A stretch of DNA of 9,631 nt from a virus. Lineage: Duplodnaviria; Heunggongvirae; Uroviricota; Caudoviricetes. Positions 2,185-9,631 of the stretch are shown piece by piece. Position numbers and translations under genes: made by a program. Each line of letters opens with the position of its first letter. Positions within the stretch are counted from its first letter, which is position 1. The notes below the pieces were generated by a model that had not been told where the DNA came from, made no database searches, and was given only the letters and a program-made list of their open reading frames with translations. The stretch lies in the IMG/VR virus record IMGVR_UViG_2737471845_000027; one strand, 5' to 3'.

Positions 2185-2719
2185 ATTAATAACTCTCTAC
2201 TGTAAGGGTATTAAAATGCTATCACAAACTCTCGCTGTAGGGGTATAGCCGAGACCACCGAGCCTGAAGTGGTAAAAAGACAGGCACACAACACGAAAGC
2301 GCACGGCGAGGCTGTTAGTTCATAAATGGTCTGTCGTTAAATTTACGTCGACCGTGCGCTTCCGGTTGTGGCACTCCGCGAAATGGCGCGGTGGTAAGTA
2401 TGGCGGGGTTATTCATTCCCAGTTGAGGACACCGGGTTGTCAGGTTGACCATACGCTTAAGTGACAACCCCGCTGCAACGCCCTCTGTTATCAATTTTTT
2501 GGTGACGTTTGGCGGTATCAGTTTTACTCCGTGACTGCCCTGCCGCCCCTTTTTAAAGTGAATTTTGTGATGTGGTGAATGCGGCTAAGCGCACGCGGAA
2601 CAGTTAAAAGCATCAGTGTTATGGGTGGATTATCCGGCGTTAATTGTTAACTGGTTAACGTCACCTGGAGGCACCAGGCACCGCATCAACAAAGTTCATT
2701 TGTAAAAATGGAGATAATT
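2185..2719. promoter_or_regulatory. 535-bp non-coding region between divergent sieB and kilR (pL-equivalent position)
   Basis: No ORF longer than about 33 codons on either strand. GC-rich core at roughly 2280..2600. 9-bp inverted repeat gggttgtca (2434..2442) / tgacaaccc (2462..2470). Weak stem then ccccttttt at 2511..2554. Candidate sieB promoter on the minus strand near 2200..2240. Confidence 0.4.
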
Positions 2720-2941
2720 ATGATTGCACATCACTTCGGAACTGATGAAATACCACGTCAGTGTGTGACTCCTGGTGATTATGTTCTTCATGAAGGCCGG
2801 ACATATATCGCCTCGGCAAACAATATTAAAAAGCGAAAACTTTATATTCGTAACCTGACTACAAAAACATGCATTTCTGACTGCATGATTAAAGTCTTCC
2901 TCGGTCGTGATGGTTTACCTGTAAAGGCGGAGTCATGGTGA
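2720..2941 (+). CDS. kilR: KilR, Rac prophage killing protein (cell division inhibitor)
   Basis: Track ORF 2708..2941; GGAG at 2710..2713 is 6 nt before ATG 2720. 73-aa product [16 protein letters not shown]... recognised as KilR. Confidence 0.85.
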
Positions 2942-3111
2942 TGACTAAGAAAATAAAATGTGCTTACCACCTTTGCAATAAAGGAATTGAAGAAAGCAAA
3001 AGCATTAAAAGACCACTTCATTTCATGCGTGGAGTTATCCCAACGACGGAAATGAAAAAATATTGTAGTGAAAATTGTGCCGAAAAAGACCAGATGGCAC
3101 ACGAACTTTAA
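2941..3111 (+). CDS. ydaE: YdaE-like small Cys-rich protein, 56 aa
   Basis: ATG 2941 overlaps the kilR stop (TGATG). Product [56 protein letters not shown] with two Cys pairs. Too short for the ORF track. Confidence 0.75.
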   Translation: MTKKIKCAYHLCNKGIEESKSIKRPLHFMRGVIPTTEMKKYCSENCAEKDQMAHEL

Positions 3112-3184: not shown

Positions 3185-3430
3185 ATGATTACCAATTATG
3201 AAGTCACTGTTGTAACTACCGATGACATTGTTCACGAGGTTAATCTGGAAGGAAAGCGTATTGGCTACGTGATTAAAACAGAAAATAAAGAAACCCCATT
3301 CACTGTGGTTGATATTGACGGCCCATCAGGCAACGTAAAAACACTTGATGAAGGTGTCACAAAAATGAGTCTGGTTCACATCGGAAAGAATCTGCCCGCA
3401 GAAAAAAAGCCGGATTTCTGGCAACTCTGA
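3185..3430 (+). CDS. racC: RacC-like protein
   Basis: 81-aa track ORF with AAGGAG 6 nt upstream; sequence recognised as RacC, directly upstream of recE. Confidence 0.8.
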   Translation: MITNYEVTVVTTDDIVHEVNLEGKRIGYVIKTENKETPFTVVDIDGPSGNVKTLDEGVTKMSLVHIGKNLPAEKKPDFWQL

Positions 3431-3557: not shown

Positions 3558-6209
3558 ATGAGCACAAAACCACTCTTCCTTTTACGGAAAGCGAAAAAAT
3601 CATCCGGTGAACCTGACGTCGTCCTGTGGGCAAGCGACGATTTTGAATCAACCTGTGCCACTCTGGACTACCTGATCGTTAAGTCAGGTAAAAAACTGAG
3701 CAACTATTTTAAAGCTGTTGCCACAAATTTTCCTGTCGTTAATGACCTTCCCCCTGAAGGTGAGATCGATTTTACCTGGAGTGAACGCTATCAACTCAGC
3801 AAAGACTCCATGACCTGGGAACTAAAACCGGGAGCAGCGCCAGACGACGTTCACCATCAGGAGGATGCACCGGAAACCGAAGAACCGACGGGAGGCCAGG
3901 AAGAAAACGCGCAGGCAGACGCCCACGAGGATTGCCAGGATTGCGAAGTCTCTGTAGCCACTTTGCGGTTCACACAGCGTCTTCTGCACATTTTTACGTA
4001 TGCAGCCGGGGATCGAAAATACCTGCATCATGCCACCCGTGAACAACGCAAACACATTACTGCTCTTGAGATGGATCAGGAAAACAGCTATGTCCAGAAT
4101 CTGCTGTTGGCCATACGCAGCATGGCAGAACCGACAACTCTGGATAATGCCGCCCTGCTCCGCCTGACTGATGCAATTAAGGCAGTGTTCTCTATCACGA
4201 AAAAACATCAGCCCTATGAATTTAAGAATTTCATTTCAGCCTGGCTGGATACCGAACACATTGATCGCGGTCTTCTGACAAAGGAATGGCGAAAAGGGAA
4301 TCGTGTTTCACGCATCACTCGCACGGCTTCCGGTGCTAATGCTGGCGGCGGGAACCTCACCGATCGCGGCGAAGGTTTCGTCCACGATCTGACGTCACTG
4401 GCGCGCGATGTAGCCACTGGCGTACTGGCCCGTTCAATGGACGTGGACATCTATAACCTTCATCCGGCACACGCTAAACGCATTGAGGAAATTATCGCTG
4501 AAAATAAACCACCCTTTTCTGTTTTCCGCGACAAATTCATCACCATGCCTGGCGGGCTGGATTATTCCCGCGCCATCGTGGTTGCGTCCGTGAAAGAAGC
4601 ACCAATTGGGATCGAGGTCATCCCCGCACACGTCACTGAATATCTGAACAAAGTACTGACTGAAACCGATCATGCCAACCCTGATCCGGAAATCGTGGAT
4701 ATTGCCTGCGGTCGCTCCTCGGCCCCGATGCCGCAGCGAGTAACAGAAGAAGGAAAACAGGACGATGAAGAAAAACCACAACCATCTGGCGCAATGGCAG
4801 ATGAACAGGCAACGGCTGAAACAGTGGAACCGAATGCAACTGAACATCATCAGAACACGCAGCCGCTGGATGCTCAGTCACAGGTAAATTCTGTTGATGC
4901 GAAATATCAGGAACTGCGGGCAGAACTCCATGAAGCCCGGAAAAACATTCCATCAAAAAATCCTGTCGATGCCGATAAATTGCTTGCTGCATCACGTGGT
5001 GAATTTGTTGACGGAATTAGCGACCCGAACGATCCGAAATGGGTTAAGGGGATCCAGACTCGCGATTCTGTGTACCAGAACCAGCCAGAAACGGAAAAAA
5101 TCAGCCCGGATGCGAAACAACCTGAGCCAGTAGTGCAACAGGAACCGGAAATAGTCTGCAATGCCTGCGGTCAGACTGGCGGGGATAACTGCCCTGACTG
5201 TGGTGCGGTGATGGGCGACGCAACATACCAGGAAACATTCGGTGAAGAGAATCAGGTTGAAGCTAAGGAAAAAGATCCGGAGGAAATGGAAGGCGCTGAA
5301 CATCCGCACAATGAGAATGCTGGCAGCGATCCGCATCGCGATTGCAGTGATGAAACTGGCGAAGTCGCAGATCCCGTAATCGTAGAAGACATAGAGCCAG
5401 GTATTTATTACGGAATTTCGAATGAGAATTACCACGCGGGTCCCGGTGTCAGTAAGTCTCAGCTCGATGACATTGCTGATACTCCGGCACTGTATTTGTG
5501 GCGTAAAAATGCCCCCGTGGACACTACAAAGACAAAAACGCTCGATTTAGGAACCGCTTTCCACTGCCGGGTACTTGAACCGGAAGAATTCAGTAACCGC
5601 TTTATCGTAGCACCTGAATTTAACCGCCGTACAAACGCCGGAAAAGAAGAAGAGAAAGCGTTTCTGATGGAATGCGCAAGCACAGGAAAAACGGTTATCA
5701 CTGCGGAAGAAGGCCGGAAAATTGAACTCATGTATCAAAGCGTTATGGCTTTGCCGCTGGGGCAATGGCTTGTTGAAAGCGCCGGACACGCTGAATCATC
5801 AATTTACTGGGAAGATCCGGAAACAGGAATTTTGTGTCGGTGCCGTCCGGACAAAATTATTCCTGAATTTCACTGGATCATGGACGTGAAAACCACAGCG
5901 GATATTCAACGATTCAAAACGGCTTATTACGACTACCGCTATCACGTTCAGGATGCATTCTACAGTGACGGTTATGAAGCACAGTTTGGTGTGCAACCAA
6001 CTTTCGTTTTTCTGGTTGCCAGCACAACTGTTGAATGCGGACGTTATCCGGTTGAGATTTTCATGATGGGCGAAGAAGCAAAACTGGCAGGCCAGCAGGA
6101 ATATCACCGCAATCTGCGGACCCTGGCTGACTGCCTAAATACCGATGAATGGCCAGCTATTAAGACGTTATCACTGCCCCGCTGGGCTAAGGAGTATGCA
6201 AATGACTAA
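3558..6209 (+). CDS. recE: Exodeoxyribonuclease VIII (RecE)
   Basis: 883-aa ORF with GAGGT RBS. N-terminus [26 protein letters not shown] and C-terminal nuclease region ([13 protein letters not shown]...) recognised as RecE. Internal Cys4 motif [15 protein letters not shown]. Confidence 0.95.
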
Positions 6210-7079: not shown

Positions 7080-7286
7080 ATGACAAAAACTTTGAGATAT
7101 GACGATGTTAAACCATGTCCGTTTTGTGGTTGTCCATCAGTAACGGTGAAAGACATTTCAGGATATTACCGGGCAAAATGCAACGGATGCGAATCCCGAA
7201 CTGGCTATGGTGGAAGTGAAAAAGAAGCGCTCGAAAGATGGAATAAACGAACCACTGAAAATATTAATGGAGGCGTTCATGTATAA
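7080..7286 (+). CDS. ralR: RalR / Lar (restriction alleviation protein; type I toxin DNase)
   Basis: Internal ATG of track ORF 7053..7286. 68-aa product MTKTLRYDDVKPCPFCGCPSVTVKDISGYYRAKCNGCESRTGYGG... with two Cys pairs, recognised as RalR. Confidence 0.85.
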   Translation: MTKTLRYDDVKPCPFCGCPSVTVKDISGYYRAKCNGCESRTGYGGSEKEALERWNKRTTENINGGVHV

Positions 7287-7467
7287 AATTACCGCTACAA
7301 TTGAAAAGGAAGGTGGCACTCCTACTAACTGGACAAGATATTCAAAATCTAAACTAACGAAATCAGAATGCGAAAAAATGCTCTCAGGTAAAAAAGAAGC
7401 AGGCGTTTCCAGAGAGCAGAAAGTAAAACTGATAAATTTTAATTGCGAGAAACTTCTGTCCTCGTGA
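7279..7467 (+). CDS. ydaC: YdaC-like small protein
   Basis: Track ORF 7207..7467; GGAGG at 7270..7274 is 4 nt before ATG 7279 (MYKITATIEKEGGTPTNWTRYSKSK...). Overlaps the ralR stop by 8 nt. Start could instead be ATG 7267. Confidence 0.65.
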   Translation: MYKITATIEKEGGTPTNWTRYSKSKLTKSECEKMLSGKKEAGVSREQKVKLINFNCEKLLSS

Positions 7468-9015: not shown

Positions 9016-9028
9016 TTTAAATACAATT

Positions 9029-9131
9029 AAAAAGAGACCGAATACGATTCCTGTATTCGGTCCAGGGAAATGGCTCTTGGGAGAGAGCCGTGCGCTAAAA
9101 GTTGGCATTAATGCAGGCTTAGTTGCCTTGC
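9029..9131 (-). ncRNA. sdsR: SdsR (RyeB) sigma-S-dependent small RNA
   Basis: Minus strand reads GCAAGGCAACTAAGCCTGCATTAATGCCAACTTTTAGCGCACGGCTCTCTCCCAAGAGCCATTTCCCTGGACCGAATACAGGAATCGTATTCGGTCTCTTTTT, which I recognise as SdsR. 3' terminator hairpin spans 9036..9062, followed by a T-run. Confidence 0.8.
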
Positions 9132-9134
9132 CCT

Positions 9135-9145
9135 TTAAGAATAGA
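9135..9145 (-). promoter_or_regulatory. Sigma-S-type extended -10 element for sdsR
   Basis: Minus strand TCTATTCTTAA, close to the sigma-S -10 consensus TCTATACTTAA, ending 4 nt before the SdsR 5' end. Confidence 0.55.
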
Positions 9146-9218
9146 TGACGACGCCAGGTTTTCCAGTTTGCGTGCAAAATGGTCAATAAAAAGCGTGGTG
9201 GTCATCAGCTGAAATGTT

Positions 9219-9289: not shown

Positions 9290-9631
9290 TTAACAGAGTT
9301 TTTCAGCTCGTTCTATAAACGGTGCCAGACTCATTTTTTCGCCGGGATTGTTAGGATCATCAATCTGAATCACCGAAATGGGTTGGGCTTTAGTCTTCCC
9401 ACTGGCAACTTCCTTTTGTGCGATATCGTTTAAAGGATACTGCACGAGGGTACTTGGGTTAATGGCATACAAAGCATTACCCGGTCTGCAAGTCAGCATC
9501 ACCTCTTCGCGATTAAACGCCCATTTGTCTTTACCCACTTCAAAACGACTGACGGTAATCACCTGCGGTGCAGCCAGCGCCGCTGCAGAACTGGTGAGTA
9601 ACAGAAACGTCAGAATACTTTTTTTCATCAT
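9290..9631 (-). CDS. yebY: YebY-like secreted protein with Sec signal peptide (host chromosomal gene)
   Basis: 113-aa ORF. N-terminus [22 protein letters not shown] is a signal peptide with an AxA cleavage motif. Sequence recognised as YebY. Start codon sits at the window edge, so RBS and promoter are off-window. Confidence 0.85.

Follow-up and report, generated by a model that had tools for sequence, protein, structure and literature searches.

The overlapping kilR-ydaE gene pair of a Rac-type prophage and a possible portable zinc-finger module in lambdoid phages

In the Qin module, the genes ydfA, ydfB, ydfC, dicF, dicB and ydfD are followed by a gene for a RecE-type exonuclease, and ydfD overlaps dicB by 4 nucleotides (nt). 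Lysis that is induced by YdfD is prevented by DicB, i.e. the products of these overlapping genes interact functionally (PMC8835842). As judged by analogy, dicB-ydfD is the closest characterised precedent for the gene pair that is the subject of this study, kilR-ydaE, which lies in a stretch of viral DNA of 9,631 nt (IMG/VR record IMGVR_UViG_2737471845_000027, the whole of which is called the window below). This stretch of 9.6 kb belongs to a Rac-type lambdoid prophage, of which it represents the early-left arm as read on the plus strand. The layouts of the two operons are homologous, with a DUF1391 gene, ydfB, ydfC, dicF, a gene for a division inhibitor, a small overlapping gene and a RecE-type exonuclease gene. 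However, neither DicB nor YdfD (DUF1482) is related by sequence to KilR or YdaE, and YdfD is itself a lytic toxin, which targets IspG. In some phages, DUF1482 and YdaE are both present in series. The case of Qin shows that a division inhibitor can form a functional unit with the product of a small gene that overlaps its own gene downstream, without the two being the usual toxin-antitoxin pair.

The gene pair is also known from the Rac prophage of Escherichia coli K-12 (b1352/b1351), which has the same two genes in the same order with the same 1-nt overlap, and RefSeq carries the identical overlap for K-12-type Rac; the sequence facts about the pair are correct, but already known and annotated. 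The window differs from K-12 Rac in 3 of the 73 KilR residues, in a ydaE allele with 73% protein identity and 84.5% DNA identity, in having DicF upstream of kilR, and in its location beside ryeA/sdsR rather than ttcA. KilR is a 73-amino-acid (aa) inhibitor of FtsZ- and MreB-dependent processes, the active region of which is a C-terminal tail of 12 residues; this tail is disordered and essential, and the effect varies with its length (PMC12482147). The gene kilR mediates the OxyS-NusG growth-arrest checkpoint (PMC5793797), and loss of RacR control leads to the joint induction of kilR, ydaE and racC (PMC11014345; 2026 bioRxiv preprint). KilR of the window is a member of the NCBIfam family NF008465 (162.2 bits, with a cut-off of 92, over residues 1-73 of 73) and matches PHROG 294 (Kil) at 2e-36. 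Kil of phage lambda is a similarly small early-left protein that blocks FtsZ and is encoded in a slot upstream of the recombination genes, but it is unrelated in sequence to KilR and needs ZipA, whereas KilR additionally affects MreB; a zinc-finger partner has been described for neither lambda Kil nor KilR. The toxin-antitoxin pairs of cryptic prophages (CbtA/CbeA and RalR/RalA) likewise combine a toxic product with an adjacent small gene in one transcription unit, but the co-occurrence and co-evolution that define such pairs were not found for kilR/ydaE.

We consider it a little less than an even chance, with a probability of roughly 0.45, that YdaE is a portable zinc-finger module that is made together with, or attached to, a small host-directed protein encoded upstream of the RecE module, and that its C-terminal surface is aimed at the host. 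The features of the gene pair on which this reading draws are the following:

2720-2941, plus strand: kilR, 73 aa, with the stop codon TGA at 2939-2941
2941-3111, plus strand: ydaE, 56 aa, with the start codon ATG at 2941-2943
2939-2943, plus strand: stop/start overlap TGATG, with one shared base (the A of TGA is the A of ATG)
2923-2932, plus strand: Shine-Dalgarno-like sequence AAAGGCGGAG for ydaE, inside the tail codons of kilR (VKAE) and conserved in Rac-type junctions
2935-2940, plus strand: alternative in-frame starts of ydaE (ATG 2935 and GTG 2938), from the list of open reading frames (ORFs)
2959-2976, plus strand: first ligand pair of YdaE, Cys7-x4-Cys12 (CAYHLC, Cx4C), in alignments A3 and A7
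3064-3108, plus strand: second ligand pair, Cys42-x3-Cys46 (CSENC, Cx3C), and the tail CAxxDQMAHE(L), in alignments A3 and A7

The original prediction for this DNA held that kilR and ydaE overlap in TGATG, that this arrangement implies coupled translation, and that YdaE is a 56-aa protein with CxxxxC and CxxxC pairs. The overlap is borne out by the sequence and the ORF list and the cysteine pairs are present (Cys 7/12 and 42/46), while the 1-nt overlap and the Shine-Dalgarno motif in the kilR tail make the arrangement appear suited to coupling. The 1-nt overlap is preserved in about 85 Rac-type loci, as TGATG in about 55 and as TAATG in about 28. Since the spacing of AAAGGCGGAG is 8 nt to the ATG at 2941 and only 2 nt to the ATG at 2935, the annotated 56-aa form of YdaE is favoured. 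The main ydaE ATG is replaced by AAG or ATA in four loci (L079, L081, L116 and L122), and L004 uses GTGA; as far as can be judged from their sequences, relatives that lack the main ATG must use alternative upstream starts. The junctions between KilR and YdaE fall into those with a 1-nt overlap (Rac), those with a 4-nt overlap (L004 and L180-182) and those with spacers of 10-33 nt (HK225 type), which contain strong Shine-Dalgarno sequences. In the window, the combination of a stop/start overlap and a ydaE Shine-Dalgarno motif within the kilR reading frame represents the layout of translational coupling. No RNA structure that would sequester the ydaE start was found beyond those formed by shuffled sequences (local fold of -16.6 kcal/mol, z = -0.12). 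The local fold is no stabler than the shuffled controls, and therefore any coupling would be simple termination and re-initiation.

Evidence for a tie between the two proteins that goes beyond the junction comes from natural fusions. A search of a library of representative sequences yielded a protein of 124 aa, the first 68 residues of which match the Kil PHROG and the last 50 the YdaE PHROG. With this fusion as the query, a single uninterrupted in-frame KilR::YdaE ORF was found in 44 loci (43 viral contigs and one Phytobacter genome). The architecture comprises six clusters at 90% identity with 308 sequences, the identity of which to P0151, the query fusion protein, is 56-72%. One of them, P0162, is a separate, independent fusion of an HK225-type Kil with YdaE. 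Several diverged clusters have a 38-aa peptide joined in frame to YdaE, and these have their own family (PHROG 6751). KilR and YdaE thus show the recurrence of a fusion-linked (Rosetta-stone) pair. The YdaE domain gave a neighbour-joining tree in which fused and split forms, and forms with different partners, are interleaved; the resolution of this tree is low because the domain has only about 50 residues. The YdaE domain is also found at the C-terminus of larger proteins (P0153, 190 aa; P0156, 189 aa; P0157, 135 aa), and the N-terminal regions of P0153 and P0157 matched no Pfam or PHROG family.

The neighbourhood of YdaE was surveyed in 22 phage records, 44 species-representative genome loci and 128 viral contigs. 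In nearly all loci that extend far enough, a RecE-type nuclease domain is encoded 1.6-2.6 kb 3' of YdaE, and no fusion of YdaE to a downstream gene, including recE, was seen among the loci surveyed. The gene directly 5' of YdaE varies: in the 44 species-level loci it is KilR-type in 15, encodes the 38-aa peptide in 17, and is DUF1482/YdfD-type in about nine. Moreover, four viral contigs have the order lambda-type Kil, DUF1482, YdaE. The 38-aa peptide (MIDFARKPxRQQAV...RRLCYLLAQKGNPDV; loci include L003 2883-2999, L006 2853-3008, L016, L020 and L022) constitutes the function-unknown family PHROG 22279, and its gene overlaps ydaE, mostly by 8 nt but in three loci by 5 or 11 nt. The peptide may represent a Kil-like effector that has so far not been characterised. 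The codons of its invariant QKG(N/D)P tail (CAGAAGGGGA) double as the Shine-Dalgarno sequence of ydaE. Homology of KilR and the peptide was considered and rejected, as hhalign pairs only nine tail columns (LxxxGxP) with a probability of 11%; the ydaE Shine-Dalgarno sequence is encoded in the tail that the two have in common, and this accounts for at least part of the resemblance.

Some further arrangements were observed in the survey. In L023 (3587-3793) and L050 (3599-3799), a PHROG 3722 protein of 66-68 aa, from a function-unknown family, precedes DUF1482/YdfD, YdaE and RecE, and the PHROG 3722 gene overlaps the DUF1482/YdfD gene by 1 nt. Phage phi80 (L133, 2492-3548) has kil, 10 nt, and then a 279-aa protein with a zf-TFIIB domain, i.e. 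a zinc finger in the slot after kil. Minus-strand matches to the Hfq-binding small RNA (sRNA) isrB lie antisense, directly 3' of YdaE or its neighbour, in L003 (3473-3560), L135 (4372-4459), L139, L169, L002 and L016; none in the window was above threshold. The contigs L012, L013 and L048, which carry kil/ydaE sequences of the Rac or Enterobacter type, are labelled as a Proteobacteria metagenome-assembled genome (MAG), a Candidatus Nanosynbacter MAG and Geodermatophilus sabuli, respectively, which probably reflects contamination or mis-binning.

YdaE of the window is a member of the NCBIfam family NF041288 (88.1 bits, with a cut-off of 35) and matches PHROG 1520. It is basic, with an isoelectric point (pI) of 9.0, and its cysteines are residues 7, 12, 42 and 46 (codons 2959-61, 2974-76, 3064-66 and 3076-78). 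In alignments of 12 and of 101 family members, little or no variation is seen at the four cysteines and in the tail YCSxxCAxxDQMAHE. Each cysteine is conserved in at least 90% of the larger alignment, and the second cysteine pair together with the tail forms the most conserved surface of the family. Relatives of the Gifsy/HK225 type have Cx2C in place of the Cx4C of the first pair. The family is small, with 31 representative clusters at 50% identity, and all named sources are Enterobacteriaceae or their phages. Passages in three papers (PMC6892955, PMC7012810 and PMC5821084) list YdaE as a zinc-binding protein, with EcoCyc and Blindauer 2002 as the sources.

The sequence of YdaE is reminiscent of the RTR1/RPAP2 finger, with which it shares the signature C-[AG]-Y-x-L-C ... 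Y-C-S-x-x-C. The match of YdaE to the Pfam model RPAP2_Rtr1 (PF04181) is borderline, with 32.1 bits and thus below the gathering threshold of 33; 48 of the 101 relatives match this model at E<=1e-3 (best 7e-9), and a few touch the FCS-type, DUF7576 or bacterial metallothionein models. However, the fourth ligand of YdaE is Cys46 and not His, the 56-aa protein lacks the Rtr1 body of about 200 aa, and many relatives have Cx2C. YdaE therefore lies outside what we take to be the definition of RTR1/RPAP2, i.e. C-x4-C ... C-x3-H within a C-terminal-domain (CTD) phosphatase body of about 200 aa. In a search of PDB sequences with the family profile, yeast Rtr1 gave a weak, non-significant match on KCGYPLC, and a match to a designed repeat protein was discarded as spurious. 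Names of the 'protein phosphatase' kind are an over-annotation, because the Rtr1 body is absent. Misleading names for YdaE in databases include 'Rtr1/RPAP2 family protein phosphatase' and 'DNA breaking-rejoining protein', a YdaE-containing ORF is called 'DNA gyrase subunit A', and Kil is found as 'cell division protein FtsZ' or 'membrane carboxypeptidase'. We presume that YdaE also resembles YacG-like Cys4 mini-proteins, which we take to be single-zinc fingers of about 60 aa with [FY]CSxxC and a conserved C-terminal tail. Mini-proteins of this type can serve to inhibit a host enzyme by binding to it. No significant YacG-like sequence or fold match was found for YdaE in the PDB sequence search or with Foldseek.

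A structural model was generated with AlphaFold2 for a natural KilR::YdaE fusion on a deep alignment, the Kil half of which rests on five sequences. The YdaE unit consists of an N-terminal knuckle, a beta-hairpin and a C-terminal helix (pLDDT, the predicted value of the local distance difference test, 66-82), and the second cysteine pair (Cys110 and Cys114 of the fusion) is located at the start of the C-terminal helix. The Kil beta domain has a pLDDT of 77-87 and, in a Foldseek search of the PDB, only vague resemblances to SH3/KOW-like barrels; residues 61-72 form a disordered linker that continues the Kil tail. The model of YdaE alone, for which 11 close homologues were used, has a pLDDT of 59 and is too low to use, and Foldseek yielded only noise with it. 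According to the fusion model, the pattern looks treble-clef-like rather than that of a classic ribbon. The description of YdaE as a likely zinc ribbon was right about a Cys4 metal-binding mini-protein, but 'ribbon' is imprecise, and by sequence and model an RTR1/FCS-like treble-clef type would be the better term.

These observations can be combined into the following mechanism. In the window, kilR and ydaE are consecutive cistrons of the RacR-repressed early-left operon, and ribosomes that terminate on kilR would re-initiate on ydaE, so that both proteins would be made together; ydaE may also initiate alone. YdaE would be a small autonomous zinc finger of the RTR1/FCS-like treble-clef type and a detachable accessory of the upstream-encoded protein, which would be KilR in Rac and the PHROG 22279 peptide or a DUF1482/YdfD-type protein in other lambdoid prophages. 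In several lineages the module would be attached covalently, via a disordered linker in continuation of the Kil tail. The near-invariant surface at the C-terminus of YdaE (YCSxxCAxxDQMAHE) would most likely bind a conserved component of the host and not a variable phage partner. YdaE would thereby add a second binding function to the block of division and elongation instead of neutralising this block, and it would be dispensable for KilR toxicity and not a cognate antitoxin. KilR and YdaE probably work together. A more specific version, which is rather doubtful, is that of one two-domain host-takeover protein that has been split into KilR and YdaE. In this version a portable zinc-finger head, linked covalently or by coupled translation to the Kil tail with its critical function, would tune or redirect the choice of target, e.g. 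division versus elongation, and would have been plugged repeatedly onto unrelated small effectors of phages.

It should be noted that several observations weigh against the proposal of a shared module. KilR expressed from a plasmid is toxic by itself, disrupting Z-rings when its level is low and MreB when it is high (PMC12482147), and most phages with KilR do not have YdaE (by tblastn, 155 phage records have a KilR homologue and 22 have YdaE). In the searchable literature, we found no experiment on the function of YdaE or on its effect on KilR. The fusion model has no confident packing between the Kil and YdaE domains (predicted template modelling score, pTM, of 0.42), and the comparison of this model with the PDB in Foldseek gave nothing below E = 0.2. 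Fused ORFs keep a Shine-Dalgarno-like AAAGGGGA and an in-frame ATG or GTG before the finger, and therefore free YdaE may still be made from them and the fusion may be tolerated instead of being selected for joint action. In addition, the tight packing of lambdoid early operons eases the accidental fusion of neighbours.

It is conceivable, though somewhat unlikely, that KilR and YdaE are independent neighbours, YdaE being a self-standing protein with a host target of its own that is unrelated to division, and that overlaps and fusions are by-products of operon compaction and mosaicism. The kilR/ydaE overlap by itself is little informative, because 5 of the 11 same-strand junctions in the window overlap (ydaG/ydaF by 8 nt, kilR/ydaE by 1 nt, recE/recT by 8 nt, ralR/rcbA by 8 nt and xisR/intR by 35 nt). 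Independence would also agree with the variety of upstream partners (KilR, the PHROG 22279 peptide, DUF1482, or lambda-Kil plus DUF1482), with YdaE domains of 96% identity that follow KilR in one Kluyvera genome (L025) and the unrelated peptide in another (L020), and with screens in which ydaE-specific phenotypes appeared without involvement of kilR. Furthermore, between the window and K-12 the synonymous divergence (dS) is 0.084 for kilR and 0.42 for ydaE (the ratio of non-synonymous to synonymous divergence, dN/dS, being 0.42 for ydaE), and therefore the two genes have different histories with a mosaic boundary exactly at their junction; the five-fold higher dS of ydaE indicates, at the level of sequence comparison, recombination at this boundary. 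At least two ydaE alleles (window 2941-3111 and L001 4408-4578, with 73% protein identity) occur behind near-identical kilR genes. Independence is opposed by fusions that recur in several diverged lineages with two unrelated upstream partners and are kept across 56-72% identity; fusions to downstream genes were not seen. Another reading, in which YdaE serves RecE/RecT in the slot of lambda gam, e.g. as an inhibitor of a host nuclease or as a RecE cofactor, would explain why a RecE domain follows YdaE not only in nearly all loci with enough DNA but in every inspected YdaE-positive phage record, and why KilR phages that use gam-bet-exo do not have YdaE. We regard it as very improbable, as 564 phage records have a RecE domain but only 22 have YdaE, some phages have exonuclease VIII and kilR without ydaE, phiSTEC1589 carries both ydaE and gam, all fusions are upstream and never to RecE, and YdaE, being basic (pI 9.0), is not a DNA mimic.

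An antidote role of YdaE was contained in the original prediction, in which coupling to a toxic product was compared with toxin/modulator pairs. YdaE would then bind or counteract KilR, and coupled translation would guarantee the supply of the antidote, which would fit the adjacency, overlap and co-induction of the two genes. Their near-constant co-occurrence in E. coli, where Rac-type kilR is present in 1878 and ydaE in 1820 of 5426 complete genomes, would also fit, but it is explained by linkage within one prophage lineage. Beyond this lineage, the distribution given above (155 against 22 phage records) is not that of a toxin with its antidote, and 11 of the 22 YdaE-positive phage records do not have KilR. 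Conversely, there are loci with kilR but no ydaE (L132, L134 and L183). Shigella Stx phage 75/02, which is of the inducible Shiga toxin (Stx) type and has no ydaE, carries a 92% identical kilR that is followed by a hypothetical ORF and then exonuclease VIII, and in this phage the homology to ydaE-bearing relatives ends exactly at the kilR stop codon, i.e. at a mosaic breakpoint. Phage 4A7, with the order kil-gam-recT-exo, and E. coli 20Ec-P-124, with the order dicF-dicB'-kilR-exonuclease, have no ydaE either. Co-evolution of the partners was likewise not found, as the 96%-identical YdaE domains with unrelated partners and the comparison of dS values illustrate; both the regular accompaniment and the co-evolution of a cognate toxin-antitoxin pair are therefore lacking, and it would be odd for an antitoxin to be fused covalently to its toxin. 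In one study using TraDIS (transposon-directed sequencing of insertion sites), ydaE had a low insertion frequency and appeared on a list with the antitoxins higA, hipB and relB, but this is ambiguous because the list also contains many AT-rich prophage genes, and, against it, the Keio strain without ydaE is viable and chemical stress leads to an enrichment of insertions in ydaE. Taken together, an antitoxin or negative modulator is quite improbable: the earlier idea of a functional tie between KilR and YdaE gains from the 44 fusion loci, whereas its antidote form agrees poorly with the distribution, the unrelated partners, the different histories and the covalent fusions.

The proposal that YdaE is a portable module accompanying a host-directed protein has to be seen in the context of the operon in which kilR and ydaE reside. 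The region around them is 96% identical to the best E. coli match and about 91% identical to K-12-type Rac. The gene order in the window is racR, ydaG, ydaF, sieB (minus strand), kilR, ydaE, racC, recE, recT, ralR, rcbA, xisR, intR, and the features that flank the pair are:

2497-2548, plus strand: DicF-type sRNA with terminator (Rfam RF00039; 71.9 bits, with a gathering score of 48), full-length, about 170 nt 5' of kilR
3185-3430, plus strand: racC, the next cistron after ydaE, of a function-unknown family (NF007306, PHROG 4778)
3558-6209, plus strand: recE (exonuclease VIII), from the ORF list

DicF is an antisense inhibitor of ftsZ mRNA, and an RNA inhibitor and a protein inhibitor of FtsZ in tandem are, as read from the sequence, the context for a putative division-inhibition cassette. 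In the Rfam comparison, DicF was not found in K-12-type Rac (L001), whereas a stretch of 231 nt around DicF is present in 4633 of 5426 E. coli genomes, with up to nine copies each and mostly without annotation. An apparent remnant of the dicB 5' end, deduced from L183, lies between DicF and kilR (window about 2618-2701, plus strand); at the equivalent position of L183, RefSeq annotates an incomplete DicB. This suggests that kilR may have replaced dicB in a Qin-like leader. Toward the other end of the window, the RalA antitoxin sRNA (7285-7463, minus strand; 217.6 bits) is antisense to the ralR/rcbA region, as in K-12. The integrase of this prophage has 358 aa, and its end is flanked by the sRNAs SraC/RyeA and SdsR/RyeB (9025-9169 and 9290-9631, minus strand), as well as by an ORF that is presumably a YebY-like lipoprotein. 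From the flanking sRNAs it follows that this Rac-type prophage is inserted beside ryeA/ryeB (sdsR) and not at the ttcA site of K-12.

Current work treats KilR as a stand-alone inhibitor with the two targets FtsZ and MreB, and as the effector in the OxyS-NusG stress checkpoint; ydaE is ignored in this work. If YdaE is independent of KilR, the finding is an ordinary overlapping gene pair. However, if YdaE is a physical or functional partner, experiments with kilR on a plasmid alone miss part of the native module, and chromosomal deletions or replacements of kilR that affect the overlapping junction may also disturb the expression of ydaE. Should the reading as a split two-domain protein be true, the 38-aa peptides of PHROG 22279 would form a class of Kil-like effectors that has gone unrecognised. 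Whether KilR and YdaE act together can be tested directly with the natural fusions, which also draw attention to a small family of phage zinc fingers, and to the peptides encoded before them, as candidates for host-directed effectors.

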